The translations under genes were made by a program, and so were the position numbers. A stretch of DNA of 45,426 nt from Chiloscyllium plagiosum (Eukaryota): contig NC_057717.1 in the NCBI RefSeq assembly GCF_004010195.1, forward strand, positions 102,979,676 to 103,025,101, read 5' to 3'. Each line of letters opens with the position of its first letter. Positions within the stretch are counted from its first letter, which is position 1. The notes below the pieces were generated by a model. The model was given only the letters and a program-made list of their open reading frames with translations. It was not told the DNA's origin and made no database searches. Below are positions 3,758-41,795 of the stretch, one piece after another.

Positions 3758-3846
3758 CTGAAAATGTGCTGCTGGAAAAGCGCAGGTCAGGCAGCATCCA
3801 GGGAACAGGAGAATCGACGTTTCGGGCATAAGCCCTTCTTCAGGAA
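3758..3846 (-). mobile_element. PLE-derived short module, family A, hammerhead-bearing, inserted in a CR1 tail
   Basis: 'ctgaaaatgtgctgctggaaaagcgcaggtcaggcagcatcc...cttcaggaa' flanked by 'tataaagggatatag' at 3743-3757 and 3852-3866. Confidence 0.85.
3816..3843 (-). ncRNA. Minimal type I hammerhead ribozyme core (family A)
   Basis: Minus strand CTGAAGA-A-GGGC-TTAT-GCCC-GAAA-CG-TC: intact core boxes, 4-bp stem II, palindromic ACGT in place of helix III. Confidence 0.75.
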
Positions 3847-3903
3847 AGGGATATAAAGGGATATAGACCAAAGGTAGGTTTATGGATGTAGACCCCAGTT
3901 CAC

Positions 3904-4252
3904 GGGCGGCATGGTGGCTCACTGCTGCCTCACAGTGCCAGAGACCTGGGTTCGATTCCAGCCTCGGGCGACTGTCCGTGTGGAGTTCACACATTCTCCC
4001 TGTGTCTGCATTGGTTTCCTCCAGGTGCTCTGGTTTCCTCCCACAATCCAAAGATGTGCAGGTTAGGTGAACTGGCCATGCTAAATTGCCCATTGTGTTC
4101 AGGGATATGTAGGTTAGGTGCATTAATCAAGGGTTAATGTAGGATAATAGGGTAGGGGAATGGGTCTGCGTGGGTTAGTTTTCGGACAGTCGGTGTGGAC
4201 CTGTTAGGCTGAAGGGCCTGTTTCCACACTGTGGGGATTCTAGGGATTCTAA
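3904..4252 (+). mobile_element. HE1-type V-SINE, near full length
   Basis: tRNA-like head 'gggcggcatggtggctc', B box 'ggttcgattcc', central core, CR1-like tail ending 'gggattctagggattcta'. Confidence 0.9.
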
Positions 4253-4334
4253 AACCTGTCAGACAGACTCAAGAACCTGAATCTTGGATACTTTAACAAT
4301 TGCTCGACAGCTGTCCCTATTTTCTTATCAAACG

Positions 4335-4890
4335 AAATGTCCATAAAGTTGACCCTGCATTTCCTGTTGTGTTGTCATTTCAGCACCCCATCCTGTTCCC
4401 GGGCCAACATCACTGTCTCAGGCTTGATGCAGTGCTCCACTAAAGCTCAGCACAAGCTGGAGGAGCAGCATCTCATTTTCCGCTTGGGGACCCTGCATCC
4501 CCACGACTCAATACCTAGTCCAATAATTTTAAGGCCTCAGCACCTTCGCCATGTCCTTGCCCCAACCCCCACACACCAAGCCTTGTCGTCAGATGGGCTG
4601 TGACCAAAACAACCCATTGTCAGCCATCAGTGGTCTCCTTAGCAGATATTCATTCTCACAAGCTGACCTTTACCCATTCCCTTGTCTACCCAATTGTTGT
4701 TCTCTCTCTTTCAGGGCTGTATCTCCACCTAGCATTTATTCCCACCAACCCCACCCCACCTGCAGCAGATATACCAATCCATTCCCAGCTGCCATCAGTT
4801 CTGAAATGTTATGTCTGCTTTCTCTCTCCACAGATGCTGTGAGACATGTCTTGTTTTCCCAACAATTTCTGATACTGTTTGCAAATTGTC
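4335..4890 (+). mobile_element. Penelope-like element 3' end: GIY-YIG endonuclease C-terminus plus 3' UTR/pLTR (family C)
   Basis: ORF 4337-4603 contains CHFSTPSCSRANITVSGLMQCSTKAQHKLEEQHLIFRLGTLHP, typical of PLE endonuclease C-termini; 4610-4880 matches the reverse complement of 41410-41690. Confidence 0.8.
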
Positions 4891-4959
4891 AACCCATTGT
4901 AATCAGCACTCTGAATTCCCAAATCAAACACACAACGTAAATCATTGACACAGTTATGA

Positions 4960-5340
4960 GTCTCCTACTGGCACCACGCTTATTCCTGAGCTGTTGTGTA
5001 TCTGACAGAGTGGGATTATTTCCTTCAACTGAATGCGTTTTATTTAAAACCCTAAAGGCACTGTAATAAAAAGACCAAAATTAATAAGCTACAAGAGAAA
5101 TATTGCAATTCGTTAGTGATCAAATTAAACATTCCAGTGTGAGCACATTAATGTAACCTTTCATTGTGCTGACAGGTATTGATTGAATGTTGCATTTCCA
5201 GCACATCTATTTGAAAATTGATCTTTATTTGCTGAAACCACCCATTCTTCTGATAATTATCATATTTTTTTTCAACATGCAGAATAAACATTGATAGTGC
5301 AGGAAAATTCAACAAAGGAAAATGAAGAGAGGTAAGGTGA
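4960..5340. promoter_or_regulatory. Unique AT-rich island, candidate conserved non-coding element/enhancer
   Basis: No repeat similarity seen; TGACAG (x2), TGATTGAAT and several TAAT/ATTA cores. Confidence 0.3.
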
Positions 5341-5513
5341 GCAAACTTACATTGATGGGGGAAAGAAGATTTCTGAATATTTATGTTTTGGGTTTTGCTT
5401 CAATGCTAAAGCGGTCCATTAGAAATGGCCATTTCTCCTCCTCTCTACCTGTGGTGGAGTACGTCTGCACTGCTCTTTTTATACCATGGAAACAGACCCT
5501 TCAGTTCAACCAA

Positions 5514-5639
5514 GAGAGAGTGAGGACTGCAGATGCTGGAGATCAGAGTCGAGAGGGTGGCGCTGGAAAAGCATGGCCGGTCAGGCAGCATCCGAGGATA
5601 GGAAAGTCGATGTTTCGGGCACAGGCCCTTCATTAGGAA
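5514..5639 (-). mobile_element. PLE-derived module, family A, with mutated hammerhead core (CTAATGA)
   Basis: 'gagtgaggactgcagatgctggagatcagagtc...tcgatgtttcgggcacaggcccttcattaggaa'; 'ttcaacca' at 5505-5512 and 5644-5651. Confidence 0.8.
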
Positions 5640-5984
5640 GTCCTTCAACCAGTCTATGCCGTCCGTTAACAACCTGACAAGATTGCTGAAAGGTTCATTC
5701 ACCTTATAGCCATTGTCTGAATGCCTATGGTCGACACTGACCAACATAAGCATGGGAAAGGTTAGACAGTGCCAGCTGAGATTTGGCAGATGCCAATCAG
5801 TGCCAGCAGTACTCCGATCCCACTTGACATTCTGCTCCGGTCGCTGAGGGAAAATTGTGGGGAGGGAAGGCCGAACCAAACAGTTTGGCTCTCACCCAGT
5901 TAACCCCATCCCCTCCTCGGAAGACCAGCACCTCAACGAATGCCACTTCATCCTGTGAGTTCAAAGTCAAAACTGCGGCTTTAC

Positions 5985-6012
5985 CTTTCTGATTGCTTTG
6001 CAGAGAACGTGG
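5985..6012 (-). other. Candidate 28-nt microexon
   Basis: Minus strand: tctttttttttattctcatctccag|CCACGTTCTCTGCAAAGCAATCAGAAAG|gtaaag; all three frames open. Confidence 0.3.
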
Positions 6013-6584
6013 CTGGAGATGAGAATAAAAAAAAAGATCTGACAAAGAGCACTTGTGGAAATTGAAAGGACAATTGTTGGAGGTTTTTTTTTGAAAAGGC
6101 TAAAGCTGTAAATCAGTCTAGATTTAGCTCTGAAAGCATCACACACCATTTTGCCACTTAGGGCTGAGTGTGAACGAAAGTGCCAAGTAGAAAAATGATT
6201 TCACAACGGAAAGAATATTAAGCCACACAGTAAACATGCTGAGAATAACAAAATAACACTGGAGATGGATTATTATGACAGTATTTGGATGACCTTCAGG
6301 GCTAACTTGGCAATGTAAATAAATGTTCCTTCCGCTAAGCATCTTTTCGTGTCATCATGTTGTTTCTCCAATTGTCATCTAGGGTGGAAACTGAAGAAAA
6401 TTCAGTCAAGTTCATAATATTTATGGAGAACGGGCCACATTTCTGCCAGATCATTGCAAAGAATGGCGTCATGTTGTAACAGTTGAGTAAGTACGATTTC
6501 AGATGAAGAGCTGCTAAAATGAACAGGCAGGATCCGAACAACCAACCCGTGTCTTTTTTTTAATGGTCGGTAGACCAGAACTTT

Positions 6585-6790
6585 TTATTGCTGGAAAAAA
6601 CACATCTTGCGGAAGATTTTCAGTCATCAGGATGATTCACAAGAACGCTAATTCATGAGGAAAGCTGACATTTAGACTGTATGAGAGAAGAGTACTGCTT
6701 GGTTAAACAAGTGAACTCTGACTGGTCGAGGTGTCGCTGGGGAGAATGCTCCCATTAGTGGTGATTGTCAGTTAACTGCTGGTCTAAGTG
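6585..6790 (-). mobile_element. Probable old PLE terminal remnant with collapsed hammerhead
   Basis: Minus strand of 6612-6630 reads CTGATGA-CT-GAAA-ATCTTC (stem II lost); family assignment from recall only. Confidence 0.4.
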
Positions 6791-7119
6791 GGTTAGTACA
6801 AATGTTGGTTTTCCCTTTTAGGGGGTTGGTGTTTTTGCAAACTGTTCTGGTGTGTATGTCAAAATGCAATTATTCGCAGCCTTCTCATTATGATGACTGT
6901 CACCTTTTCCGTGCGGAAGCGGCAAATGTATTTGAGCTGTTTGTGCTGTTGATAATGAGGTAACAAAGAGATGCTTTTGAAATAGTGTCAGAGGGACACT
7001 CACTGCTAAAATCTACCATCCTGCACAGGAATGACCAGGTTTAGTCCAGCTGTGAGTGACAGTCCAGTTACTTAAAAGCAAAGCCACCTACAGTGCAAAC
7101 TTGGCAACATCACCATTGG

Positions 7120-7490
7120 CTTAAGAACATAGGACATAAGAACATAAGAACCAGGAGCAGGAGTAGGCCGTCTGGTCCCTCGAGCCCGCTCCGCCTTTCA
7201 ATAAGATCATGGCTAATCTTTTCATAGACTCAGCTCCACTTACCCACCCTCTCACCATAACCCTTAATTCCTTTACTGTTCAAAAATCTATCTCTGCCTT
7301 AAAAGCATTCAACGAGGAAGCCTCAACTGCTTCACAGGGCAGGGAATTCCACAGATTCACAACCCTCTGGGTGAAGACGTTCCTCCTCAGCTCTGTCCTA
7401 AATCTGCTCCCCCCCTTATTTTGAGGCTATGTCCTCTAGTTCTAGTTTTACCCTCCAGTGGAAACCACCTCCCTGCTTCTGTCTTAACCT
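7120..7490 (-). mobile_element. CR1 LINE 3' end with (AAGAACAT)n tail
   Basis: 'aagaacataggacataagaacataagaaccaggagcaggagtaggcc'; 'gaattccacagattcacaaccctctgggtgaag'. Confidence 0.85.
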
Positions 7491-7959
7491 CTATGAAATT
7501 GGAGAGAGTTAATCAGCCCAGATCAAACCTGACTAGTCACTCTCTATTTCCTGTTCTTTCTCTGAGAATGCATTCAACTGTTTATTGAACACAGTTACAC
7601 TGTCCAGGTTAGAAGATTTCCTAATACCAAGGAAATCTGTATTCTGTTTGGAAAAAGGCAAGCCTTCAGCCTTTCTGTGAGCTCCCAGCTTTAGAATTTA
7701 AAAACAAAATTGATGTTTGAAATCCTAGTTGTCATAAACGAACGATTCCCTTTAAGCATTTTGAGCAAAACATCAAACCTAACTCAGCTTTCCTAATTTT
7801 TCTTCATAATTTGATCCCTATAATTATCAATATCTATGACAAAAGACCTTGACAATGTCCATCTATGATCAGCTAGCCATAACAGAACAAGCACTCTGGA
7901 TGGACACTAAGCCCAGGCTTATGCAACGCACATAATTAACAAGTTATCCTTAAAAATAA

Positions 7960-8630
7960 ATAAGAACGAGGAGCAGGAGTAGGCCTGTATGTTTTCTTAA
8001 CAATCCTATCAACCTGGGTGGCAATTTTGAGGGATCTATGTGCATGGACACTGAGGTCTCTGCTCATCTACACTACCAAGAATCTTACCATTAGCCCAGT
8101 TCCTGTTGCTCCTTCCAAAGTGAATCACCTTACACTTTTCTGCATTAAACTCTATTTGCCACCTCTCAGCCCAGCTCTGCAGCTTATCTATGTCCCTCTG
8201 TAACCTGCAACATCCTTCAGCATTATCCACAACTCCACCGATCTTGGTGTCATTCCCAAATTTACTAACCCATCCTTCTATGCCCTCATCCAGGTCATTT
8301 ATAAAAATGACAAATAGCAGTGGCCCCAAAATAGATCCTTGTGGTAGACCATAGTAACGGAACTCCAGGATGAATATTTCCCATCAACCACCACCCTCTG
8401 TCTTCTTTCAGCTAGTCAATTTTCCAAACTGCTAAATCACCCTCAATCCCATGCCTCCGCACTTTGTTTAACAGCCTACAGTGGGGAACCTTACAAACAC
8501 CTAACTGAAATCCATATACACCACATCAACCACTTTACCCTCATCCATCTGTTTAGTCACCATCTCAAAGAACTCAATAAGGTTTGTGGGGCACGACCTT
8601 CACAAAACCGTGCTGACTATCCCTAATCCT
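7960..8630 (-). mobile_element. CR1 LINE ORF2 reverse-transcriptase fragment (decayed)
   Basis: ORF 8036-8329: GPLLFVIFINDLDEGIEGWVSKFGNDTKIGG...LQRDIDKLQSWAERWQIEFNAEKCKVIHFG; catalytic FADD mutated to FGND. Confidence 0.9.
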
Positions 8631-8759
8631 ACATTAGGATATGCCTACATTAAACCTTTCAGAAGCTCAGTTTGCGTTAATTGTTTCTGAAGAACTTCCC
8701 CAAAATTAGCCGAACTGGAGACAGCTTGGATTTTGTGGAAACTGGAAGAAAGAACAAGG

Positions 8760-11222: not shown

Positions 11223-11722
11223 NNNNNNNNNNNNNNNNNNNNNNNNNNNNNNNNNNNNNNNNNNNNNNNNNNNNNNNNNNNNNNNNNNNNNNNNNNNNNN
11301 NNNNNNNNNNNNNNNNNNNNNNNNNNNNNNNNNNNNNNNNNNNNNNNNNNNNNNNNNNNNNNNNNNNNNNNNNNNNNNNNNNNNNNNNNNNNNNNNNNNN
11401 NNNNNNNNNNNNNNNNNNNNNNNNNNNNNNNNNNNNNNNNNNNNNNNNNNNNNNNNNNNNNNNNNNNNNNNNNNNNNNNNNNNNNNNNNNNNNNNNNNNN
11501 NNNNNNNNNNNNNNNNNNNNNNNNNNNNNNNNNNNNNNNNNNNNNNNNNNNNNNNNNNNNNNNNNNNNNNNNNNNNNNNNNNNNNNNNNNNNNNNNNNNN
11601 NNNNNNNNNNNNNNNNNNNNNNNNNNNNNNNNNNNNNNNNNNNNNNNNNNNNNNNNNNNNNNNNNNNNNNNNNNNNNNNNNNNNNNNNNNNNNNNNNNNN
11701 NNNNNNNNNNNNNNNNNNNNNN
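11223..11722. other. Assembly gap (500 N)
   Basis: Exactly 500 Ns, a placeholder size; true length unknown. Confidence 0.99.
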
Positions 11723-11881
11723 AGTTCTGAGAGCGCTGCTCCTTCATCAGGTGACTATTTACCTAATGAAGGAGGAGCGCTCTGAAAGTCAGTGCTTCCA
11801 ATTAAACCTGTTGGACTATAACCTGGCATTGTGTGATTTTTAACTTTGTCCACCCCAGTCCAACGCCAGCACCTCCACATC
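11723..11881 (+). mobile_element. PLE-derived fold-back module, family B, two opposed hammerhead-like cores
   Basis: 'gagcgctgctccttcatcaggtg actattt acctaatgaaggaggagcgctctgaaag' then tail 'aattaaacctgttggactataacctgg...ccccagtccaacgccagcacctccacatc'. Confidence 0.8.
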
Positions 11882-12495: not shown

Positions 12496-12946
12496 GTTTG
12501 GATTATCCGAATGTTGGATAAGGTAATGGTCATGAACTAGTTAATGTATTGGCAATGCTGGAGATCCGGGCAGTTTGATACTTAACACATCGACTGGATG
12601 GAGACCGGGGTAGCTTGTGGGAGGACGTATCCCAAAGCTCAAGTTGGCTGGAGTCTGGATGTTCTCCTGAAGGAGGCCCACATGTGCTACCTCACTCCTG
12701 CTAATGCAACCTGTGCGTCGTTACTGAGGTGCAATAAACCACATCTTATTAGCAAGGCCAAGACTTGCTTATGGTCCATCCTCCAACACAGACTACTGTC
12801 ACCATTGACCAGTATCAGAAGGTGGATTGGAGACTGCTGCCTACCCTGATCCCGAGCTTTCTGTGGTTGGTCTCCGAGGATCACATTGCTATTACAACAC
12901 TTTCAATTGCTCCCTAAAGGACTTCAGCTACTCCCAGACGTAGAGG

Positions 12947-13045
12947 TGCCTGATGAAGGAGCAGCGTTCCGAAAGCTTGTGATTTCAAATCAACCTGTTC
13001 GACTGTAACTTGGTGAGGGGGAGGGAGGTGTGTGACTTCTGACCT
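12947..13045 (+). mobile_element. PLE-derived module, family B
   Basis: 'tgcctgatgaaggagcagcgttccgaaagcttgtgatttcaaatcaacctgttcgactgtaacttggtg', colinear with 11761-11845. Confidence 0.75.
12950..12978 (+). ncRNA. Minimal hammerhead ribozyme core (family B)
   Basis: CTGATGA-A-GGAGC-AGC-GTTCC-GAAA-GC-TT; 5-bp stem II with one G-U; palindromic AGCT; flanks tgc/gtg can form a weak helix I. Confidence 0.7.
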
Positions 13046-13087
13046 ATTCCCAGACAACATTGGTTAGGCATGTTACAAAGGGCATGG

Positions 13088-13172
13088 AGTCGATAAATGA
13101 GGTGCTGGAAAAGGCACAGCAGGTCAGGCAGCATCTGAGGAGTAAGAGAGTTGACACAACACTTTATCAGGA
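13088..13172 (-). mobile_element. Degenerate family A PLE module
   Basis: 'gtgctggaaaaggcacagcaggtcaggcagcatctgaggag...tttatcagga'; core eroded. Confidence 0.7.
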
Positions 13173-13247: not shown

Positions 13248-13553
13248 TTAGATTAGATGACCCTACAGTGCAGAAACAGGCCCTTCGGCCCAACAAGCCC
13301 ACACCGACCCTCCGAAGAGTAACCCACCCAGTCCCATTTCCCTCTCACTAATGCACCTAACACTATGGGCAACTTAGCATGGCCAATTCACCTGACCTGC
13401 ACATTTTTGGACTGTGGGAGGAAACAGGAGCAGCCGGAGAAAACCCACGCAGATACAGTGAGAATGTGCAAACTCCACACAGACAGTCACCCGAGGCTGG
13501 AATCGAACCTGGGACCCTGGTGCTGTGAGGCAGCAGTGCTAACCACTGAGCAA
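13248..13553 (-). mobile_element. HE1-type V-SINE
   Basis: 'ttagattagatgaccctacagtgcagaaacaggcccttcggccc...ggaatcgaacctgggaccctggtgctgtgaggcagcagtgctaaccactgagc'. Confidence 0.9.
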
Positions 13554-14884: not shown

Positions 14885-14982
14885 AAGCAGAAAATGCTAG
14901 AGAAACTCAGTAGGTCTGGCCGCATCCGTGAAGAGAGATACAGAGTTAGTGTTTTGAGTCAGGTATGGCGCTTTCTTCAGAA
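14885..14982 (-). mobile_element. Family C PLE terminal module, degenerate core
   Basis: 'cagaaaatgctagagaaactcagtaggtctggccgcatcc...cagagttagtgttttgagtc...ttcttcagaa'; minus strand CTGAAGA...AAAA. Confidence 0.65.
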
Positions 14983-17223: not shown

Positions 17224-17565
17224 AGAGGTTCATAAAATCATGAGGGGCACTGATAGGGTGAACAGCCAAGGTCTTTTCTCCAGTGGTGAGGGAGTCCAAA
17301 ACTAGAGGACAGAGGTTTAAGGTGAGAGGGGAAAGATTTAAAAAGGACCTATGGGGCAACTTTTTCACACAGAGGGTGGTGCGTGTATGGAATGAGCTGC
17401 CAGAGGAAGTGGTGGAGGCTGGTACACATGCAACATTTAAGAGGCATCTGGATGGGTATACAAATAGGAAGGGTTTGGAGGGATATGGGCCAAGTGCTGG
17501 CAAGTGGGACTAGATTAATTTAGGATATCTGGCCGGCATGGAAGGGTTGGTCTATTTCAATGCTA
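17224..17565 (+). mobile_element. CR1/HER1 LINE 3' end
   Basis: ORF 17283-17513: ESKTRGQRFKVRGERFKKDLWGNFFTQRVVRVWNELPEEVVEAG...FKRHLDGY. Confidence 0.9.
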
Positions 17566-17915
17566 AAAGTCACACAACACCAGGTTGTAGTCCAACAGGT
17601 TTATTTGGAAGCACTAGCTTTTGGAGCGCTGCTCCTTCATCAGGTAACAGCGCTCTGAAAGTTAGTGCAGAGGAACCTCGATTATCCAAAGGGCACGGGC
17701 GGGGAGTAATTCACTCGGTTAATCGAATTCGGATAATAGAATGGCGGATAACATAGTTTAGCCGAGCATGGGGAACCTTGCGACCTTGCTGAATAATCCG
17801 ATGTTCAGATAATCAAATGCCAGATAATTGAGGCTCCTCTGTACTTCCAAAGAAACCTGTTAGACTGTGATTTTTAACTTTGTCCATCCCAGTCCAACAC
17901 TGGCTCCTCCATATC
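17566..17915. mobile_element. Family B PLE fold-back module, split by a MITE
   Basis: Left arm 'aaagtcacacaacaccaggttgtagtccaacagg...ccttcatcagg', right arm '...ctgaaagttagt[MITE]cttccaaagaaacctgttagact'; 'ttcaatgcta' at 17556-17565 and 17924-17933. Confidence 0.85.
17668..17841. mobile_element. Tc1/mariner(Tigger)-type MITE
   Basis: TIRs CAGAGGAACCTCGATTATC and revcomp CAGAGGAGCCTCAATTATC (17 of 19 match); TA on the right flank, TG on the left. Confidence 0.8.
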
Positions 17916-19692: not shown

Positions 19693-20010
19693 CGCACGAT
19701 GGCTCAATAGTTAGCACTGCTGCCTCACATAGTCAGGGACCCAGGTTCGATTCTAAATTCGGTCTGTGTGGAGTTTCCTCTGGGTTCTCTGATTTCGTCC
19801 CACAGTCAAAAGATGTGCAAGCTAGGTAGATTAGCCGTGGGAAATTGCCCATAGTGTCCAGGGATGTGCAGGCTAGATGGGTTAGCCATGGGAAATGCAG
19901 AGTTACAGAGATAAGGTAGGAGGCTGGATCTGGGTGGGATGCTCTTCAGAGAGTCAGTATGGACTTGAGGAGCCGAATGGCCTCTTTCCACACTGTAGGC
20001 ATTCTATAAT
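19693..20010 (+). mobile_element. HE1-type V-SINE (internal deletion)
   Basis: 'gcacgatggctcaatagttagcactgctgcctcac...ggttcgattc...ttccacactgtaggcattcta'. Confidence 0.85.
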
Positions 20011-21267: not shown

Positions 21268-21577
21268 AGTGTGTGTGAGTGTGTGTGCATGCGAGTGTGT
21301 GTGTTTGTGTTGAGTGAATGTGATTGTGTGTGTGTGAGTATGTGTCTTTATGAGAGAGAGAGTGTGTGTGTGTGAGTGTATACGCGTATGCGTGTGTGAG
21401 AGAGTGCGTGTGTGTGAGTGAATTTGATTGTGTGTGTGTGTGAGTGTGCGTGTGTGCGTGCGTGTGTGTGAAAGAATGTGCGTATGTGCGTGAGTGAATG
21501 TGATTGTGTGCGTGTGTTTGTGTGTGTGTGAGTGAATTTGATTGTGTATATGTGTGTGTGGGTGTGTGTGTGTGTGT
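21268..21577. repeat. Interrupted (TG)n/(CA)n microsatellite tract
   Basis: About 310 bp of TG-rich sequence with a recurring GAGTGAAT(G/T)TGATTG motif. Confidence 0.95.
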
Positions 21578-23519: not shown

Positions 23520-23860
23520 AAGGGAAAGATCCTGTAGATGCTAGAGATCTGAGTAACCACAGAAATTGCTGAAGAAGCTCAGCAAGTCTGGTAGCCTCTG
23601 TGGAGAGAGAAACAGAGTTAGCATTTTGGGTCATTCTATTCTTTACAGTAGTAGCTGTTGCTGAAGATTGTACTGTTACCATTCACGCATCCTCAAGATT
23701 CATTTTTCGCTCCCAGTCCCCCGGCTTTCTCTTTGATCTTGGACTGTGATCTCCTTCTGTTATTTAATCTCTCCTGCCCTCCATCCAATCACCGATCCTC
23801 CTCCCTGTCCCCTGTCCTGCTTTCTCCAATTTGCTTTGAAACGATTGTATCTCTAAGTAC
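23520..23860. mobile_element. Degenerate PLE terminal/3' UTR remnants (family C-like)
   Basis: 'cagaaattgctgaagaagctcagcaagtctggtagcctctgtggagagagaaacagagttagc'; pyrimidine-rich UTR-like 23750-23860. Confidence 0.55.
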
Positions 23861-25329: not shown

Positions 25330-25610
25330 GTGTTATGCAAAGGAGGTGGGTTCACTGGGGGAGCTCAACATGTAACAGGCTCTGCCTCTGTGTAATGGAT
25401 TAATCTCAACACAGACGAAAGCTTAATGCCAGTTGTCGTAATTGTTATACCAGCACCAATGTAGGTCTGATGAAAAATGCAGTGGTGGAAACCGTTTCTA
25501 GTCTCTCTAACCGTGCAAAAACCCAATGGATGGAAGCATTAATTCATGCAATTTAATAAGCAAACTGCTGAGGTGTCAGGACATTATGTCAAATTAAAAT
25601 ACGCGAGATG
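25330..25610. promoter_or_regulatory. Unique island, candidate enhancer/CNE
   Basis: TAATGGATTAATC, ATTAATTCATGCAAT, TTATGCAAA, TGTCA x2. Confidence 0.3.
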
Positions 25611-26182
25611 GATGTGGGAGTCTGGTACTCATGCAGAATCAGACTTGATTACAAAGCAGCTCCTGGCTCACCTGGGAGACCAAGATAACAACAAAAACAA
25701 AGGCTGTTGGTCTCTTCTGCTTGTGGTTTTTGATCATCTCACTGGCCATAAATGTTTCATAAATAAGACTGCTGTTGAATATTCTTGTATACCATTCTCT
25801 GCTATTAGCAGACTGTGATGATTCTGTTATAAAAAGGGTACAGGAAATGAGAGGTCAGGGATAAGTTATGGGAGTAACTTTCACATTTGAAAAAATAATG
25901 TTTGCTCAAGTCTATAAATGGCCATGGGTTGGAAGTCCGAACTATGCAGTTGTTTGGTCTCCGAGATATGACAAAAATAACAATAACAACTCATCTCCTC
26001 TAATGCAGCTTTAGCATATAACAGCCCTTGGTGCATTATATGAGAATTATTGAGACAGATTTGACACTTACTGAGCCGCACTCAAGGCTCAGTAAGCCCA
26101 GTCAAGGAGGTTGCCTTCTAGGTAGTTTCCTAAAGAATAAAAGAGAGGCAGAGAGAGTTAGACAGGGTGGTCTAAAGCTTAG

Positions 26183-26278
26183 AGTCAAAACGCGTGGGCC
26201 TGGAAAAGCACAGCAGGCCAGCCAGCATCCAAGGAGCAGGAGAATTGACGTTTCAGGCATAAGCCCTTCATCAGGAAA
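26183..26278 (-). mobile_element. PLE-derived module, family A, 96 bp, with 13-bp TSD
   Basis: 'gtctaaagcttag' at 26170-26182 and 26279-26291. Confidence 0.9.
26247..26274 (-). ncRNA. Minimal hammerhead ribozyme core (family A)
   Basis: Minus strand CTGATGA-A-GGGC-TTAT-GCCT-GAAA-CG-TC. Confidence 0.7.
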
Positions 26279-26319
26279 GTCTAAAGCTTAGGGGACCAGG
26301 CAGCTAAAGACACAACAGC

Positions 26320-28170: not shown

Positions 28171-28272
28171 GAGAACAAAGAACAAAAGAGAAGTCCAGCA
28201 CAGGAATAGGACCTTCGGCGCTCCATGCCTGTGCCGATCATCTTGCCCCAACTAAACTAAGAAACAAACCTT

Positions 28273-28572
28273 GGTGAGTTTTGAGAATATTTGTAGCTCA
28301 GGTTGAGGTTTTGGATGTAGGTTTGCTCGCTGAGCTGGAAGGTTCATTTCCAGACGTTTCGCTACCCTACTAGGTAACATCTTCAGTGGGCCTCAGGCAA
28401 AGCACTGCTGAAAATTCCTGCTTTTTATTTATATGTTTGGGTTTCTTTGGGTTGGTGATGCCATTTCCTGTGGTGATGTTTTTCCTGTGGTGAAACCACT
28501 TCCTGCTCCTTTTCTCAGGGAGTGGTAGATGGGGTCTAACTCGATGTGTTTGTTGTTAGACTTCTGGTTGGA
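28273..28572 (-). mobile_element. Penelope/Poseidon-like element 3' end (family E) with hammerhead
   Basis: ORF 28429-28638 contains SNQKSNNKHIELDPIYHSLRK, a PLE endonuclease C-terminus; 'aacaaacctt' at 28263 and 'aacaaaacctt' at 28572 as an imperfect TSD. Confidence 0.8.
28353..28386 (-). ncRNA. Minimal hammerhead ribozyme core (family E); best-formed copy
   Basis: Minus strand cca-CTGAAGA-T-GTTACC-TAGTAG-GGTAGC-GAAA-CG-TC-tgg: 6-bp stem II, 3-bp helix I (cca/tgg), GUC cleavage triplet. Confidence 0.8.
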
Positions 28573-29961: not shown

Positions 29962-30073
29962 AAGTTAAAAATCACACGATACCAGGTTATAGTTCAAACC
30001 AAATTGGACTATGACCTGGTCTTGTGTGGTTTTTAACATTGTCTACCCCAGTCCAACACTGGCATCTCCACAT
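29962..30073. mobile_element. Family B fold-back module lacking the hammerhead core
   Basis: 'aagttaaaaatcacacgataccaggttatagttcaa' opposed to 'ttggactatgacctggtcttgtgtggtttttaac'; 'ctggata' at 29955-29961 and 30079-30085. Confidence 0.8.
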
Positions 30074-30194: not shown

Positions 30195-30878
30195 GTAGGC
30201 CAGAATTTATTGGCCGTCCCGTGAGGGAAGCACAGTGGCTCAGTGGTTAGCACTGCTGCCTCACAGCGCCAGGGACCCATGTTCGATTCCAGCCTCAGGT
30301 AACTGTCTGTGTGGAGTTTGCACATTCTCCTCGTGTCTGTGTGGGTTTCCTCTGGGTGCTCCGGTTTCCTCTCACAGTCCAAAGATGTGCAGGTTAGGTA
30401 AATTGGCCATGTTAAATTGCCCACAGTGTTCAGGGATGTGTAGTTGGGTGTATTAGTCAGGAGTAAATATTGGGGAATGGGTTTGGGTAGGATACTCTTT
30501 GGAGGGTCAGTGTGGGCTTGTTGGGCCAAAGGGCCTATTTGCACACTGTAGGGAATCTAAGAGATGTAGGGATTCTAATTCCTAATTGCCCAGAGGACAG
30601 TTAGGAATCAACTTTATTGCTGTGATTCTGGAGTCACATGTAGGCCAGACCAGATAAGGATAGCAGCTTCTCTCCCGAAAGGGCATTAGTGACCCAGATG
30701 GAGTTTTTCCCCAAAACAACAAACAGTGATTTCATGGTCATCATTAGCTTCATAACTTTCATTGAATTCAAATTTCACCATCTGCCATGGTGAGATTTGA
30801 GCCCAGGTCCCCAGGACGTGATCTGAGTCTCTAGATTAATAGCCAAATGATAATACCACAAGGGTATTGTCTCCCCCT
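30195..30878 (-). mobile_element. SINE type B, interrupted by HE1
   Basis: 'tttattggccgtccc|HE1|cctaattgcccagagg...ctggagtcacatgtaggccagacc...taataccacaagggtattgtctcccc'. Confidence 0.8.
30228..30578 (+). mobile_element. HE1-type V-SINE, full length
   Basis: A box 'tggctcagtgg', B box 'gttcgattcc', core and tail 'cactgtagggaatctaa'. Confidence 0.9.
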
Positions 30879-31483: not shown

Positions 31484-31770
31484 GGCACGGTGACTCAGTG
31501 GTTAGCGATGCTGCCTCACAGCACCAGGGACCCAAGTTTGATTCCAGCCTCGGGCAACTGTCTGTGTGGAGTTTGCACATTCGCCCCATGTCTGTGTGGG
31601 TCTCCTCTGGCTGCTTTGGTTTCCTCCCACAGTCCCAAGATGTGCAGATTAGGTGGGTTGACCGTGCTAAATTGCCCATAGTGTTCAAGGATATACAGGT
31701 TAGGTGGATTAGCTGTGAGGACCACGGAGTTATGGGTCTGGGAAGGATCTTGATAGGCCGAAAGGCCTGC
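31484..31770 (+). mobile_element. HE1-type V-SINE
   Basis: 'ggcacggtgactcagtggttagcgatgctgcctcacagc...ttcctcccacagtcccaagatgtgcag'. Confidence 0.85.
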
Positions 31771-33735: not shown

Positions 33736-33737
33736 TT

Positions 33738-33986
33738 TTAGATTAGATTCCCTACAGTGTGGAAACAGGCCCTTTGGCCCAACCAGTCCACTCCCTCCGA
33801 AGAGTAACCCACCTAACACTATGGACAATTTAACATGGTCAATTCACCTGACGTGCACATCTTTGGACTGTGGGAGGAAACCCATGCAGACACGAGGAGA
33901 ACGTGCAAACTCTACACAGTTAGTCGCCCGAATCGAACCTGGGACCCCGGTGCTGTGATGCAGCAGTGCTAACCACTGAGCCACCA
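33738..33986 (-). mobile_element. HE1-type V-SINE (deleted)
   Basis: 'ttagattagattccctacagtgtggaaacaggccc...cagcagtgctaaccactgagccacc'. Confidence 0.9.
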
Positions 33987-34188
33987 TATCACTCCTATGC
34001 CACTATGTTCCTAGGCCTTTAACCCAATGTTAGGAATCTGAAGTTTTTGCCTCTCACCCAATTAAGTTTCCTGGAAAATTCTATCCGTGGCATCCATTAT
34101 TCAGCAGAATATCTTCACAAACGCTCTTTCAAATTCCAGGTTCTTCTAGGAATATACGGGAACCAAAGTTGGCTTTAATTGTCCACAA

Positions 34189-34406
34189 TTGAAAGGTGTG
34201 GTGCTGGAAAAGCACAGCCAGTCAGGCAGCATCTGAGGAGCAGGAGAGTCCTCATTTTGAGCATAAGCTCTTCACCAGGAATGATGAAGATCCCGTGCTT
34301 GAAATGTCGACTCTCCTGCTCCTCAGACACTGCCTGACCGGCTGTGCTTTTCCAGCATCACACTTGTCAACTCCGATCTCCAGCATCTGCAGTCCTCACT
34401 TTCTCC
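34189..34406. mobile_element. Family A PLE fold-back module with 15-bp TSD
   Basis: 'tttaattgtccacaa' 34174-34188 and 'tttaattgttcacaa' 34410-34424; arms 'gtgtggtgctggaaaagcacagcc' and 'ggctgtgcttttccagcatcacac'. Confidence 0.9.
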
Positions 34407-34977
34407 CAGTTTAATTGTTCACAAGTCAAACTGAGAATTGGTTTTCTAATATTCTCAATATGACAGAAATACCTGTATCCCCTTTGAAAGATTGCATCTG
34501 AATGATGTTAACCTTAATCTCAAAGTGCAATAGGAAACAGCAGCATCCATTTCTCAGGGAGGTGTGTTTCAACAGAATTGAATCAATTGGCAAGAAAATT
34601 CAAATCCTCTCACTGTTGGTTACTTAACATTTACTTCATTAGAATTCAGTTCAGTTGGTTCAATTGTCTGAGGACATGCTGTTAACTGAGAGACCTGGCT
34701 TTTTATCTTGAAGACAGAGTGTCAATGAAATGCAAGTCCAGTGAACACTCAAAAATGCATGTACTTGCAACAAAAGAAAGAAAGTTTTATCACCTTATGA
34801 TTTGTGTAAGCATCTAATAGCCAATCATGGAAATGTAGTGGATATTATAGTGTTAGATATACAGGGGAGGTGATGCCCTAGTGCTAATATCACTGGGCTA
34901 TTAATCCAGAGACTCAGGTAATGTTCTGAGGCCCAAGTTTGAATGCCAGCTTGGAAGATGGTGGAAATTGAATCCAA

Positions 34978-35184
34978 GACAAGATTAGAGTGGTGCTGGA
35001 AAAGGACAGCAGGTCAGACAGCATCCGAGGAGAAGGGATATTGACGTTTCAGGCAGGAGCCCTTCATCAGGAATTCTGAAATGTTGATTCTCCTGCTCCT
35101 CGGATGCTGCCTGACCTGCTGTGCTTTTCCAGCACCACTCTAATCTTGACTCTGATCTCCAGCATCTGCAGTTCTCACTTACAT
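34978..35184. mobile_element. Family A PLE fold-back module with perfect 14-bp TSD
   Basis: 'gaaattgaatccaa' at 34964-34977 and 35185-35198; arms 34980-35052 and 35076-35148 are reverse complements. Confidence 0.9.
35043..35070 (-). ncRNA. Minimal hammerhead ribozyme core (family A)
   Basis: Minus strand CTGATGA-A-GGGC-TCCT-GCCT-GAAA-CG-TC. Confidence 0.7.
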
Positions 35185-35479
35185 GAAATTGAATCCAATA
35201 ACAGTCTAGAGTTAACAGTCTAATAATGACCATGAATCCATCGTTAATTGTCACAAAAAGTCCATCTGGTTCACTAATTGTTTGCAGGGAAGAAAACTGC
35301 CATCTTTACCTGGTCTGGCCTACACGTGACTCCAGTCTCACAGCAATGTGCTTAATATTTAACCTCTCTCTGGGGTAATTAGGGATGGGTAATAGAAGCT
35401 GGCCTGACCAGTGATGCTCACATCCCATTAAAAAAAATACGGCAGCCACATTGTCCAGGACATTGTCCCACTAACAGAT

Positions 35480-35810: not shown

Positions 35811-35904
35811 TGATCTTGTCGTGCAGTATGTGTAGTGTCCCTACCTCCTGGCTGGAAGCTCTGGGTTCAAGTCCCCACACTCTCAGAGCTGGATGGCATG
35901 GACA

Positions 35905-36390
35905 TTGTGATTTTTGAGAAAATCTGTAGCTCAGATTGAGGTTAAGGCTCTAAGTTTGCTCGCTGAGCTGGAAGGTTTGTTTCAGACATTTCATCACCAT
36001 ACTAGGTAGTATCATCAGTGAGAGTCTCCGGTAAAGCCCAGGTGTTGTGTCCCACTTTCTATTTATGTACATTGGTCTATTGTGGTGGGTGATACCATTT
36101 CCGGCTCTTTTTCTCAGAGGTTGGTAAATAGGATCCAAATCAATATGTTTATTGATAGATTTCTGGTTTAAATGCTAATCAATAAACACATCGATTTGTA
36201 CCCTATTTACCAATAACTGAGAAAAAGAATCCGAAATGATATCACTCACTTTAAGAGGCCAAGACACATAAATAGAAAGAAAGACATACCACCAGTGCTT
36301 CACCAGAGGCTCATTGATGATGTTACCTAGCATGGTGACAAAATATATTAAAATGAACCTTCCAGCTCAGCAAGCAAACTTACAACCTGA
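35905..36390. mobile_element. Two opposed Poseidon-like PLE 3' ends (family E) forming a large inverted repeat
   Basis: Minus arm encodes DPIYQPLRKR (ORF 35950-36138); plus arm starts 'atcaataaacacatcgatttgtaccctatttaccaa'; both similar to 28273-28572. Confidence 0.85.
35985..36018 (-). ncRNA. Hammerhead-like core (family E), partly decayed
   Basis: Minus strand CTGATGA-T-ACTACC-TAGTAT-GGTGAT-GAAA-TG-TC; stem II imperfect, palindrome broken. Confidence 0.5.
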
Positions 36391-37021
36391 AAGTAATTAT
36401 CGATTTCTAAATTCTTTCAATACGCAGACGGCAGCTGGTAAGCTTCCCATCCAGCCAGAACAGCTTCCCCACATTAAAAGTCTCCACATGCAGGCTCATG
36501 TCGTGAGCAAGTGTCGCCATAATTTCTGATACGATTCCAAGGAGACCCTGGATTACGCACTGAAGTCCCGCTCCAGGGATCAGTCTACTGTTAAACACCT
36601 TGCAGATCTTCAAAGTCTCCCTTGTGCCTTGATCTTCTCAATGGGAATATTACTTGGGTTCAGTTTAACTAGAAGAGTGTGTCGTTGTGACATGACATCC
36701 TCTGACATTTACTCTGCTGACTTTGCAATGTAACACAGTCTGTTGTTCTGCTGATTGATCCTTCAGACTGACAGGACACTTTAAGTGCCAAGTCTAAATA
36801 TGCCTTTGCATATTTCAATGCCACATATAGCTCTTTAAGTTGCATTTATAGAATATGATCAAGTACTTCCATCCAAATTGCAGTTTACACTTCCTATCTT
36901 TCTTTGTTGGATGCAGCCTTGGTCTCAGCTGTCTACCATGCCTGTTTACAAATCAAACCTTCCTACATGCATCCTTATCACATCCCAAAGTCTCTGGAGA
37001 AGGGGTTATCCATGAATGACT

Positions 37022-37348
37022 GGGTGGCACAGTTGTCCAGTGGTTAGCACTGCTGCCTCACAGCACCAAGGACCTGATCCTCTGAAGAATATTCCACCCA
37101 GACCCAACACTGTCCCTGTAACCCAGCATTTCCCATGACTAACCCACCCAGTTTGTGCACTTTGGACAATTCAGCACGGCCAATGCCCTTAACCGGCACA
37201 TCTTTGGACTGTGGGAGGAAACCGGAGCACCTGGAGGAAACCCACACGGGGAGAATGTGTAAACTCGACACAGACTGTGGCCCAAGGCTGGAATCAAACC
37301 CGAGACGCTGTAAGGATGTAGCGCTAACCATTGAGCCACCGTGCCGCC
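37022..37348. mobile_element. HE1 head (+, 37022-37075) facing a near-complete HE1 (-, 37078-37348)
   Basis: 'gggtggcacagttgtccagtggttagcactgctgcctcacagc' and '...gctaaccattgagccaccgtgccgcc'. Confidence 0.85.
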
Positions 37349-38430: not shown

Positions 38431-38499
38431 GACATTCTGTTTCACCAGAACATCCATGGAGGTGATGTTGTGTGATTTTGTGCCACCTTTACCCAGAGC

Positions 38500-38657
38500 A
38501 AACAGCATCACAGCCCCCAGATTATCATGTGTCTTCTCTGTGGGCGCTGGACCTGCACAGATTAGTGGCAGCATTTCCTGCATTGTCATCCTCTGCAAAG
38601 CACCTTGGGCTGTTCTGATGACCTGAAAGGTGTTACGTAAATGTAAGTATTTTCTTT
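38500..38657 (+). mobile_element. DeuSINE 3' half
   Basis: 'cagattat...tgtgggcgctggacctgcacagattagtggcagcatttcctgcattg...aaagcaccttggg...gaaaggtgttacgtaaatgtaag'. Confidence 0.55.
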
Positions 38658-38853
38658 CGACGGAGGATATAACTCCATGAACAGGTGGTGAGAAGCAGGG
38701 CAGTTTATGAGCTTGGACAGTTGGGTGGAAATATTTCGAGAGTGTGGGAACCACCCATATTCTCTTGCGGTATTTCCAAATGAGTGAACTTGGAGCAGGG
38801 CTCTCAGCCTCTTTGTGAGTGACCTTGAACTATGTTGACTCAAAATATAAGAA

Positions 38854-38994
38854 CTGAAAATGTGTTGCCGGAAAAGCAGGGCTCATGCCTGAAACGTCGA
38901 TTCTCCTGCTCCTTGGATGCTGCCTGACCTGCTGCGCTTTTCCAGCCACACATTTTCAGCTCTGATTTCCAGCATCTGCAGTCCTCACTTTCTC
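38854..38994 (+). mobile_element. Family A module with short 5' inversion and perfect 15-bp TSD; hammerhead truncated
   Basis: 'ctcaaaatataagaa' at 38839-38853 and 38995-39009; 38854-38878 is inverted relative to 38935-38959; keeps GGGC-TCAT-GCCT-GAAACGTC but lacks CTGANGA. Confidence 0.9.
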
Positions 38995-39149
38995 CTCAAA
39001 ATATAAGAATTCAATTTACACCCAAGTGCTGTAATTGAAGATCTTGTCAGCCTGGTATTGATTCAGCGATGGTTACTTGTTGCTAGTTACTAGTTGAGAA
39101 ATGTATCTAGCCTCGCTATTGCTGTATTTTTGCTCAGCCTTACAAACCT

Positions 39150-39390
39150 CTGAGATCAAACAGCCCTGGTCCTCTTCGGAATCACTTTACTCCCTTTTGC
39201 TACAGCAACTGGTGGCTGTTCGTTTTTCCAAACTCTGGGTTCCCCTCACTCCACGTCCGCCTCTCTCTCTGTTTTCAAGACATGCCTTGGAACCTCTAAT
39301 TGGTTCAAGCGGCCAGGGCGTTAAAACAATTACACTCTCATGAGGACCTTTCGTTGAGATCTCTGGGTGCTATATAAATGCAGCTTGTTG
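39150..39390 (+). mobile_element. L2-type LINE 3' end, degenerate
   Basis: 'aactctgggttcccctc...cgcctctctctctgttttcaagacatgcctt'; tail 'gtgctatataaatgcagcttgttg'. Confidence 0.5.
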
Positions 39391-39559
39391 CTTCTTTGAC
39401 GTTTGCTGGACTTGTGATTGGACTGAGGTATGGGGGGTTGAAGGGGGAGGCAGACACTGATTAGATAGTGTGGTAAAAACACTTAGGGATGAGGGGAGAA
39501 TTGGGTGTTGGCTGGGTGTGGGGGTGAGGTGGGGTGAGCGTGAAGATGGACACAACTTC

Positions 39560-39790
39560 AGCCTTGGCTGCGTGGCACAGTTAAAATTAATTGCAGATCT
39601 AAGACGAGACAGCAGCGCTGGGCTGTAGTTCAGTCAGAAATGATGGATGAGAGATTGTGCGCAAATTGGTTAGCGTTATTGATCTTATTACAATGAGGTC
39701 TGTACTGAATAGAGATTAAGCAACTCGAGCCATACTGAACGAAACTTGTGACACGAGGAGTTTAAATTTAGAAGCTGTTTGTGCCAGTAC
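39560..39790. promoter_or_regulatory. Unique island, candidate enhancer/CNE
   Basis: AATTAATTGC, TGATGGAT, TATTGAT, ACAATG; several retained CpGs. Confidence 0.3.
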
Positions 39791-39929
39791 TTGACGGTTT
39801 CTGGGAGAAAGTATTCTTAATGAATATTACCCGCAGAGGGACCACAATAGGAAAGCAGCAAACAAACAGAGATTGCTGGAGAAAATTGACAGGTGGAGAG
39901 AGAAATGCTTTTAACATTTTGAGTCTAGT

Positions 39930-40552
39930 TATAGAGTCATAGAGTCACAGAGTCATACAGCACGGAACAGACACTTCGGTCGAACCAGTGCATGCTGAAC
40001 ATAATCCCAAACTAAACTAGTCCCACCTGCAATATCCCTCCAAACTTTTCCTATTCATGTACTTATCCAAATGTCCTTTAAACATTGTAACTGTACGTGC
40101 ATCCACCACTTCCTCTGGAAGATCATTCCACACACTAACCAGCCACTGTATTGAAAAAAATGCCTCTCATATCTTTTTTGAATCTCTCTCCTCTCACCTT
40201 AACTGTGTGCCCCTGGTCATGAAATCCCCCATTTTAGGGAAAAGACAATGACCATTAACTCTGTCCATACCCTTCATGATTTTATAAACTTCCATAAGAT
40301 CACCTCTCAACTTCCTACACCCCAGTTAAAAGATCCCAGCCTGTTCAGCCTCTCCTTCTAATTCAATCCTTCCATATCCAGCAACATCCAGGTAATTCTC
40401 TTCTGAACCTTCTCTAGTTTAATAATATTCTTTCTGTAACAGGGTGACACAGTACTCCAGAAGAGGCCTCACCAATGTCCTGTACAACCTCAATATGATG
40501 TCCCAACGCCTCTACTCTAAGGTCTGAGCAATAAAGACAAGTATGCTAAATG
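39930..40552 (-). mobile_element. CR1/HER1 LINE 3' portion (resumes at 40962-41010)
   Basis: Tail 'tagagtcatagagtcacagagtcatacagcacgg'; colinear with 9633-10250. Confidence 0.9.
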
Positions 40553-40961
40553 TTCAGCCTCCTGCTTATCGACCTTGGATTCTAGCAGCTGCAGTTTATT
40601 TGTCTCTAACTAAGTTTCTACCACTGTGAAGTCTCTTCAAGGCATGTCCACTTTGAAGAAGCTCTCTGCCTTGCTCAGACATGCACTCAGTGAGCCCCTT
40701 TCTCACTGCCACAGTGCTGTGACCTCTTAGCCCTCCAGCTCTTTGACTACACGATGAAAAAAATCCCACTACTACAGCACCTATCCCAACCTCACTAGCC
40801 CGCTTCCCCTCTCCCTTCCTCCCCCACCTCCCCTTTATCTGCAACTCCCCTTACACCCACCCGCCCCTAATCCTGAAGAAGGGTTAATACCCGAAATGTT
40901 GACTTCTCCACCTCCTGATGCTACTTGGCTTGCTGTGTTCTTCCAGCATCCTGCCTGTCTA
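40553..40961 (+). mobile_element. PLE-derived insertion (family D) inside CR1, with short terminal direct overlap
   Basis: Starts 'ttcagcctcctgcttatcgacc', ends 'ttccagcatcctgcctgtctacc'; C-rich UTR followed by a hammerhead core. Confidence 0.7.
40873..40900 (+). ncRNA. Minimal hammerhead ribozyme core (family D)
   Basis: CTGAAGA-A-GGGT-TAAT-ACCC-GAAA-TG-TT; stem II compensatory to family A (GGGT/ACCC vs GGGC/GCCC); palindrome likely CpG-decayed. Confidence 0.6.
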
Positions 40962-41404
40962 CCTTCTTAACCACCGTGACAACAAATTTCAAAGAATTAT
41001 GTACCTGAACTGACACAAGGCAGACTCTTCTAAAGCCCCCACTGTCCTTTGTTTTATTTAAGAAAGGGATGCATTAGTTTGTCACACAATACAGGCATGG
41101 GGTGTGCACACAGGATTTGAAAGCTGGTGGGGTAAGGAAATTACCTCTTAAGGTTTGTGGGAGGGAATGAAAAGAGGGGGAGCAGGGTAACATCTATCTC
41201 TTCATGTCACACCATTCTTTTCAAAATCCGGAATGTTTTATTATTGTCGTCCCCATAAGTAACATAGCAGCCACTCCTCTCCTCCTGGAGAACTGAATGT
41301 GACCCTAGAATACTTGCATTTGATGGCACAAAAGGGCACCTTTGATTTGGTGCTGATTGATAAAGGCCATCTGTGAATACAACAAGTACAGAAGGTTCAA
41401 CAGG

Positions 41405-41795
41405 ACCAAAAACAGGAATCGCTGGAAAAGCTCAGCGGGTCTGGCAGCATTTGTGCAGAGAAATCAGAGTTAATGTTTTGGGGTCCAGTGATCCATCCTC
41501 AGAACTGATGGTAGCTGGGAAAATGGTTTATAGACAGAAGATGGGGGGGGGGGGGGGGAAGGGGGTAAGGAGCAAACGATAGGTGGGGATAGGGCCCAAA
41601 GAGAGAGAGAACAGTTGGACAGATAAAGGATTGGGTAACGATCTGACTGGGAGGATGAATAGCTACTAATGGGGATTGTTAGTGGCTAATAATTGTTACT
41701 GTTATTTCAGAAATGTTAACACTGATTTCTCTCCAGAGATGCTGCCAGAAGTATTGAGCTTTTCCAGCAATTTCCGTTTTTTTTCTGATCTACAT
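41405..41795 (-). mobile_element. Family C PLE 3' UTR/pLTR with inverted terminal copy
   Basis: 41410-41480 opposed to 41710-41785; minus strand of 41472-41502 has CTGAGGA...AAAA-CA-TT (decayed core); body matches 4610-4800. Confidence 0.8.

Follow-up and report, generated by a model that had tools for sequence, protein, structure and literature searches.

Minimal hammerhead ribozyme motifs in short retroposon units, probably inserted by Penelope-like elements, in a Chiloscyllium plagiosum genome window

A stretch of the Chiloscyllium plagiosum genome (contig NC_057717.1, positions 102,979,676 to 103,025,101; hereafter the window, meaning the whole 45,426 bases) contains many copies of a sequence that resembles the core of a hammerhead ribozyme (HHR). 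We consider it probable, at roughly 0.8, that these cores are genuine minimal type I HHR motifs located at the 5′ end of short non-coding retroposon units, about 95–220 bp in size, that owe their insertion to the machinery of Penelope-like elements (PLEs). The window holds 44.9 kb of known sequence and one assembly gap (an N run at 11223-11722), and its comparison with itself places each core inside a short repeat unit. Summed by coordinates, 17 insertions or loci cover about 2.6 kb, or about 5.8% of the known sequence. The window is unusually dense in ribozyme-bearing units, and the high density of cores claimed in an earlier annotation of this stretch (the original prediction) is upheld. Minimal HHRs in PLEs have been known since 2014; the element found here is of a known kind, correctly identified, in a lineage from which little of it has been described. 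The distinctive points are the density of the units and a 5′ end that is defined and lies shortly upstream of the ribozyme.

Hammerhead cores in unrelated repeat families

The most basic alternative is that the core boxes match by chance, lie in ordinary repeats and are unrelated to ribozymes. A loose search gives this explanation some room. The pattern CTGANGA-N6-30-GAAA, run over the whole window, produced 10 matches representing 8 distinct sites, only about twice the mean of 100 shuffles (4.97 ± 2.20, largest 9), and Rfam reports no hammerhead (see below). Moreover, two candidate sites are indeed products of chance: the eighth loose match, 25467-25491(+), because it has neither a helix II between the boxes nor homology to any repeat, and a site near 6612, which displays no family similarity and no stem. 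The other seven loose sites (3816/3820, 12950, 26247/26251, 28353/28357, 35043/35047, 35985/35989 and 40873) all lie within repeat families, which bears out the seven exact-core positions of the original prediction. A strict descriptor modelled on the published minimal hammerhead is far more discriminating. It demands CTGANGA and one H, followed by a stem (4 bp or longer, opening with G and closing with C) around a loop of 3 nt or more; after these come GAAA, a palindrome of 4 nt on A15.1 and U16.1, and H17. Three intact sites satisfied it, 3816-3843(-), 12950-12978(+) and 28353-28386(-), whereas none of 500 dinucleotide-preserving shuffles yielded a single one (mean 0.0, maximum 0). Since, in addition, the same eight-part architecture is repeated in three unrelated families with different yet pairing helix II sequences, and compensatory changes are present, the chance explanation is close to refuted.

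Altogether, 15 full cores are recognisable, along with truncated pieces at 38878, 35076, 13155, 17645-17667 and 11723-11751. The units carrying them fall into three families, A (8 insertions), B (3) and C (2), which in the self-comparison have no mutual similarity outside the core, and a sister family D (4 loci), which shares its tail with A. The original prediction had counted at least five families; there are three unrelated ones plus D, and the GGGT/ACCC copy at 40873 turns out to be a diverged member of A. It had also listed eight decayed sites. Seven of them, near 5608, 11725-11790, 14948, 17615, 34250-34310, 36313 and 41472, are homologous decayed copies, and the one near 6612 has to be given up. 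On the other hand, it had missed the copies at 38878-38994(+), 35076-35184(+) and 13082-13168(-), as well as the family D loci 23545-23650 and 41711-41781.

An unpaired nucleotide, A or U, follows A9 in 15 of 15 cores, and the position before the cut, H17, is not G in 14. The closing pair 10.1-11.1 is G-C in nine cores, G-U in four (a CpG-type C to T change) and A-T in two. Helix III is reduced to ACGT or AGCT in six cores, most of the others being one transition away (ATGT, ACAT). Helix II pairs within each family: GGGC with GCCC in A, GGAGC with GYUCC in B, and GUUACC(U) with (G)GGUAGC in C. Helix I comprises just 2–4 bp (tc/ga, ac/gu(g), cca/ugg or agtt/aact). The original prediction was right about the sequences of helix II, about ACGT or AGCT as helix III and about the short flanks of helix I (cca/tgg, ac/gt and agtt/aact), to which the tabulated cores add tc/ga. 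Published hallmarks of PLE minimal HHRs are a nucleotide between A9 and position 10.1, a G10.1-C11.1 pair and a palindromic 15.2-16.2, within the consensus NNN CUGANGAH GNNNNN ... NNNNNC GAAAN-palindrome-NU H NNN (PMC4209133). The published alignment includes helices I of 2 bp, for example in Drosophila virilis, Culex and Oikopleura (PMC4209133).

The comparison between families and the shuffle test of the strict descriptor carry the main, and real, weight for the ribozyme identity. Covariation within families provides modest support, with a small sample (10, 3 and 3 copies). In family A, 97% of helix II cells are paired, and sliding the partner lowers this to 45% or less; RNAalifold independently predicts the same helix. 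Two of its four pairs display double changes, G-C to A-U in the two 34-kb arms and C-G to U-A at 40873, and the covariation score was reached by 4 of 500 shuffles. By a rough estimate, however, two double changes in about 30 pair-cells at 15–20% divergence are not far above the neutral expectation. Family C contributes one compensated pair in helix I (cca/tgg versus tca/tga). Cofolding was not decisive: the 28353-28386 monomer folds in a hammerhead-like manner, and the predicted dimers lie outside the catalytic register.

Insertion signature and proposed origin of the units

We regard PLE-type insertion of family A as shown by its anatomy, because its target-site duplications (TSDs), its two 3′ ends and the asymmetry of its arms match the published anatomy of PLE insertions. 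TSDs of 13–15 bp are found at the unit boundaries in five of the seven family A insertions examined (Table 1); the remaining two are 5513-5643, where the repeat measures only 8 bp, and 40869-40965, where there is none. At random anchors, direct repeats of at least 13 nt arose by chance in 4 of 1000 trials and those of at least 8 nt in 9%. In the alignment, family A has two discrete 3′ ends, a short one 58–64 nt and a long one 96–101 nt after the predicted cut site. The extension between them measures 34–39 nt and contains a 29-nt motif; the window has four occurrences of this motif, each immediately 3′ of an A tail. An AC-rich stretch precedes the short end. In the three compound units, without exception, the inverted arm finishes at the short site, the direct arm at the long one. 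At the opposite side, full-length A units start 4–8 nt upstream of CUGA (at 3851, 5643 and 26278), and the B unit with the core at 12950 starts 10 nt upstream.

Similar features have been described for PLEs. Their insertions are strongly 5′-truncated and often preceded by an inverted 5′-truncated copy, with a tail of 30–40 bp that is often present at one end only (PMC8557442). The PLE protein of Anolis cleaves and extends both target strands; it has two internal reverse transcription start sites, the tail corresponding to the sequence between them, and the start sites of this element, PAc, lie in an AC-rich stem-loop (PMC11167929). Paired minimal HHRs have been reported 100–700 bp apart on opposite strands (PMC4209133). 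Families B, C and D have the ribozyme architecture in common with A and also show inverted arrangements, from which we infer, by analogy, that they too may be linked to PLEs. Family C has a further parallel: its A9-U-G10.1 reads as an AUG, which begins a frame of 42 codons, 28255-28380(-), and the predicted cut falls 28 nt after the A of this AUG.

Could the units instead be SINE-like (short interspersed nuclear element) sequences, moved by CR1-type long interspersed nuclear elements (LINEs) or another non-PLE reverse transcriptase (RT), with an incidental hammerhead-like head and inverted arms resulting from twin priming? The units are short, non-coding and TSD-flanked with a defined 5′ end, in the manner of SINEs, and the sole RTs in the window speak for the same machinery. 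RVT_1 matched three frames at two loci, 8039-8383(-) and 42723-43572(+), that are CR1-like by their relatives (eukaryotic fragments of 60–72% identity and bird ‘jockey-like’, that is CR1, proteins of 42–49%), so that, judged by sequence, these RT remnants are CR1-type LINE relics and not PLEs. CR1 LINEs dominate shark genomes (PMC8455134), and SINE-like elements bearing hammerheads are known in schistosomes (review PMC6765202). However, the units have no similarity to the CR1 copies of the window and no tRNA-like head (ARAGORN found 0 genes in the window); they begin with the ribozyme itself. The details of the core agree with the PLE minimal HHR consensus (PMC4209133). The two fixed 3′ ends, 34–39 nt apart, together with overlapping inverted arms that begin at the short site, correspond to the signature published for PLEs. 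Under twin priming, the inverted segment lies upstream and does not overlap, unlike the inverted arms observed here, which cover the same region as the direct arm. We therefore consider a SINE-like origin unlikely.

Alternatively, each unit might be a solo monomer of a non-LTR retrozyme, a class of tandem hammerhead repeats propagated via small circular RNAs. Vertebrates do have retrozymes with type I hammerheads acting as dimers (PMC7229834), and retrozymes and PLEs occur together in one cartilaginous fish (10.64898/2026.07.22.740005). Several observations make this very improbable. Tandem Repeats Finder placed no core of the window inside a tandem array, and the units are either solo or inverted. 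They measure 94–141 bp as against 170–400 nt for retrozyme RNAs (PMC7229834). Their boundaries, as defined by the TSDs, do not coincide with the cleavage site; they lie 4–8 nt before CUGA and 58–101 nt after the cut.

If PLE machinery made the units, the following sequence of events can be envisaged. Source elements, either full PLEs or their non-autonomous derivatives, would be transcribed; transcription of the source pseudo-long terminal repeat (pLTR) might begin 4–8 nt upstream of CUGA. Dimer cleavage of hammerheads was reportedly described by Lunse, Weinberg and Breaker. A single hammerhead of this type is unable to form helix III and would consequently pair with a second copy. Such dimers, held together by the ACGU/AGCU palindrome, would cut after C17, U17 or A17 and thereby process long or multimeric transcripts, as in the dimer model of minimal hammerheads (PMC4209133; review PMC6765202). 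The PLE RT/GIY-YIG endonuclease would nick and extend both target strands, cDNA synthesis starting at the short or the long internal site downstream of the HHR and copying toward the 5′ end of the RNA. The second strand may prime a second, inverted copy, giving rise to the inverted arm, the optional tail and the TSD. If the RT starts at the first copy of the start site, solo pLTR-like units would result. Every inserted unit observed holds the ribozyme and the tail in one piece, so the templates were uncleaved RNAs, consistent with the report that cleavage is dispensable for insertion (PMC11167929).

A number of observations weigh against an origin of all these units from PLEs with working ribozymes. 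Some of them concern the ribozyme. Defects such as a G12-to-A or G5-to-A change or a disrupted helix II or III affect 12 of the 15 cores, with at least one in each. Rfam hammerhead models (types I, II and III, HH9 and HH10) gave no match at the gathering score or at E ≤ 10, either for the whole window or for pieces of 81–101 nt. This is expected, because the models require full helices I and III, and a real helix III and a closed helix I are missing here. Helix I of family A is paired in only 69% of cells. The covarying helices of the original prediction hold up insofar as helix II differs between families yet pairs and has two double changes; the modest covariation and helix I fall short of the claim. 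The core boxes, originally described as staying fixed, are not clearly more conserved than the tail. In family A the majority fraction is 0.93–0.96 in the boxes and 0.82–0.90 in the tail (0.90 in columns 61-84), so the boxes are barely more conserved than the tail and clearly exceed only the 5′ flank (0.62), and the invariant columns are mostly in the tail. Even these box values are no proof of special constraint: they are inflated, several of the copies having been located by means of the boxes themselves. PLE minimal HHRs also cleave poorly in vitro (PMC4209133), and catalytic mutants of the hammerhead leave insertion in vitro unaffected, with no reads ending at the cut site (PMC11167929).

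Other observations on the same side concern the PLE link. None of the 236 stop-to-stop frames of at least 60 aa in the window matched GIY-YIG, and we found no PLE coding sequence there. Searched against longer proteins, the 42-aa peptide of the family C frame matched no PLE open reading frame (ORF); its one match is a gene model of Hemiscyllium ocellatum, 207 aa long and annotated as retinitis pigmentosa 9 isoform X2, with 71% identity over 90% of the query. This similarity suggests that a copy of the family C repeat may have been taken into a predicted exon in that species. Outside the five family A cases no convincing TSDs were detected, be it for the C unit at 28353, the C pair at 36 kb, the D units at 14948 and 23 kb, the D pair at 41 kb, the A copy at 40873 or the B unit at 17 kb. 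Families C and D thus have neither convincing TSDs nor paired 3′ ends, and family B has only an 8-bp repeat, of a length reached by chance in 9% of trials. Finally, the fixed 5′ end of the A and B units is not predicted by random 5′ truncation of a long PLE and cannot be produced by hammerhead cleavage. The proposal that these are PLE-derived minimal type I hammerheads is thus sustained by the hallmarks of the core and by the insertion signature of family A, and is tempered by the missing PLE ORF, by the analogical placement of B, C and D, and by the three intact cores among 15.

A bolder idea is that the 94–141 bp ‘ribozyme-first’ units form a distinct and very abundant class of PLE-made mini-retroposons in cartilaginous fishes, in which the PLE RT would start at the 5′-proximal copy of the internal start site on RNAs beginning just upstream of the hammerhead. 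We put it forward tentatively, as a possibility that we ourselves find doubtful. If it is true and the window is typical (17 insertions, three intact cores per 45 kb), a multi-gigabase genome would contain minimal hammerheads in numbers of the order of 10^5 for intact and as many as about 10^6 for decayed ones. This would make them the most copy-rich ribozyme motif in a vertebrate genome, far above the counts of about 4,000 in coelacanth and about 9,000 in Xenopus (PMC4209133), although a step from one window to a genome is inference only. A density of this kind throughout the genome would matter for the annotation of shark repeats, where such units have likely been left unclassified.

Decay of the copies and other features of the window

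The inserted copies are best seen as neutral relics, dead on arrival and decaying mostly at CpG sites. Most core defects are CpG-type transitions, such as GCCCG to GCCTG (C11.1 to U) or ACGT to ATGT or ACAT. Box 2 reads AAAA for GAAA (G12 to A) in five cores, G5 is changed to A in two, and helix II is broken in several. In the tail, a block around GGATGCTGCCTGACC...GCTTTTCCAGC is conserved like the catalytic boxes and may be a candidate protein recognition site. The individual units are collected in Table 1.

Table 1. Units, cores and arms of the four repeat families in the window, with target-site duplications (TSDs) where present
Feature	Position	Strand	Details	TSD
Family A solo unit, 94 bp, short 3′ end	3758..3851	-	intact hammerhead 3816-3843	15 bp exact, 3743-3757 / 3852-3866
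Family A solo unit, 131 bp, long 3′ end	5513..5643	-	extension 5520-5548; weak 8-bp flanking repeat	
Decayed core of the 5513-5643 unit	5609-5636	-	CTAATGA; ACAT	
Family B head-to-head pair	11723..11881	.	left side cut by the N run 11223-11722	
Cores of the 11723-11881 pair	11723-11751; 11763-11791	-; +	partial (first), decayed (second)	
Family B solo unit	12940..13047	+	intact hammerhead 12950-12978: GGAGC/GTTCC, AGCT, U17; weak 8-bp flanking repeat	
Family A copy	13082..13168	-	tail kept, most of the core lost	
Family D unit, A-related tail	14885..14980	-	core decayed: box 2 AAAA, helix II broken	
Family B unit	17545..17667	-	core 17615-17643, G12 to A; 23-nt inverted piece 17645-17667 abuts the 5′ end	
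Family D unit	23545..23650	-	decayed core; extension-like 3′ part	
Family A solo unit, 96 bp, short 3′ end	26183..26278	-	core 26247-26274, sole defect a G10.1-U11.1 wobble	13 bp exact, 26170-26182 / 26279-26291
Family C unit	28266..28468	-	intact hammerhead 28353-28386; helix II 7 bp, helix I cca/tgg	
Family A compound insertion	34189..34409	.	inverted arm 34189-34281(-), direct arm 34282-34409(+); both cores decayed	15 bp, 1 mismatch, 34174-34188 / 34410-34424
Family A compound insertion	34978..35184	.	inverted arm 34978-35075(-), core 35043-35070 with G-U closure	14 bp exact, 34964-34977 / 35185-35198
Direct arm of the 34978-35184 insertion	35076-35184	+	5′-truncated; carries the extension	
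Family C long inverted pair	35907..36426	.	centre near 36167	
Cores of the 35907-36426 pair	35985-36018; 36314-36347	-; +	helix II broken, ATGT (first); TTGATGA, AAAA (second)	
Family A compound insertion	38854..38994	+	24-nt inverted tail piece 38854-38877 starts at the short site	15 bp exact, 38839-38853 / 38995-39009
Direct copy of the 38854-38994 insertion	38878-38994	+	truncated inside the core; extension present	
Diverged family A unit	40869..40965	+	core 40873-40900; compensated helix II GGGT/ACCC; helix III ATGT	
Family D unit	41382..41506	-	core 41472-41502 decayed: box 2 AAAA, ACAT; helix I agtt/aact	
Family D tail, coreless	41711..41781	+	inverted relative to the 41382-41506 unit, about 200 nt off	

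The 500-N assembly gap abuts the family B head-to-head pair, which fits a published remark that inverted and tandem PLE structures break short-read assemblies. Sub-threshold Rfam microRNA-like matches at 36103-36231, 34232-34328 and 17608-17674 (for example MIR6135, 35 bits against a gathering score of 99) were rejected as microRNAs; they are simply the hairpins of head-to-head repeat pairs, which could pass for microRNA precursors. A separate 70-nt hairpin at 29967-30036(+), outside the hammerhead families, matches mir-3045 below the threshold (35.2 bits, E 0.00058; gathering score 90).

Much of the remaining window is occupied by CR1-like LINEs and by a tRNA-derived SINE-like repeat. Broken RT remnants are found at 42723-44200(+) and 8039-8383(-). 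The SINE-like repeat, abundant and about 300 bp long, is independent of the hammerhead units; it occurs at 3852-4240 and in at least 10 further copies, e.g. 30251-30559, 13261-13538, 31509-31711, 1905-2123, 37163-37348, 19773-20006 and 33815-33968. One of its ends resembles a tRNA-derived SINE head, with a GGTTCGATTCC-like B box on the + strand of 3852-4240; ARAGORN calls no tRNA. A CCAT-rich micro-/minisatellite follows the CR1-like remnant immediately on its downstream side, and the window also has a long degenerate (GT)n tract (44423-44657, 21269-21577). The Diphtheria_R Pfam match on a frame of the CCAT microsatellite (16 bits against a cut-off of 25) is noise.

Relation to known hammerhead-bearing elements

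PLEs have been reported in the elephant shark and whale shark genomes (PMC4350176, PMC8455134), and a scan of one Chondrichthyes genome for tandem retrozymes, using type I models of both canonical and minimal form, is reported to have found retrozymes and PLEs together; its authors derive the retrozymes from PLE pLTRs (preprint 10.64898/2026.07.22.740005). As to minimal HHRs in cartilaginous fishes, full-text literature searches and a word search of the retrozyme paper PMC7229834 returned no description, and these fishes did not turn up in the main text of PMC4209133, in a term search of its supplement or in the examined portion of its alignment. Strings from the repeats had no match in the full-text literature, and metagenome scans with the family A core pattern and the family A tail pattern gave 0 matches. 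The combination of a PLE tail and inverted-arm signature with exact TSDs on very small units might offer a compact substrate for studying the choice of RT start sites, and the units could help explain the position of the ribozyme in the element.

The units resemble non-LTR retrozymes (PMC7229834; Li, Clavereau & Pollet 2026) in being non-autonomous, hammerhead-bearing and probably PLE-dependent, and in the dependence of the vertebrate ribozymes on dimers. In contrast, retrozymes are head-to-tail tandem repeats giving rise to circular RNAs, whereas the units described here are solo or head-to-head, each (in family A) with its own TSD.

The likeness to PLE minimal HHRs extends further. It includes the order CUGANGA...GAAA, the unpaired A or U after A9, a helix II of 4–7 bp with G-C closure, a helix III consisting of a 4-nt palindrome (ACGU or AGCU), the U-H cleavage position and a short helix I. 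At the level of the genome, both occur as many dispersed singles, as opposite-strand pairs and in several sequence families. The differences are that helix I has 3–6 bp in most published rows (PMC4209133) compared with 2–4 bp here, and that in our window most copies are decayed and no flanked PLE ORF is present.

Among individual elements, the instructive counterpart is the Poseidon-type PAc of Anolis carolinensis (PMC11167929). PAc has a long RT-endonuclease ORF after the hammerhead, whereas here the frames stop after 18–42 codons and the unit is 94–141 bp long. The distance from the cut to the 3′ end is about 85–92 nt in PAc, as derived from the figures of that paper, compared with 58–64 and 96–101 nt here. 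Otherwise the two arrangements have much in common: a hammerhead shortly upstream of two cDNA starts, an optional tail of 30–40 bp, extension of both target strands and, as in family C, an AUG overlapping the start of stem II.

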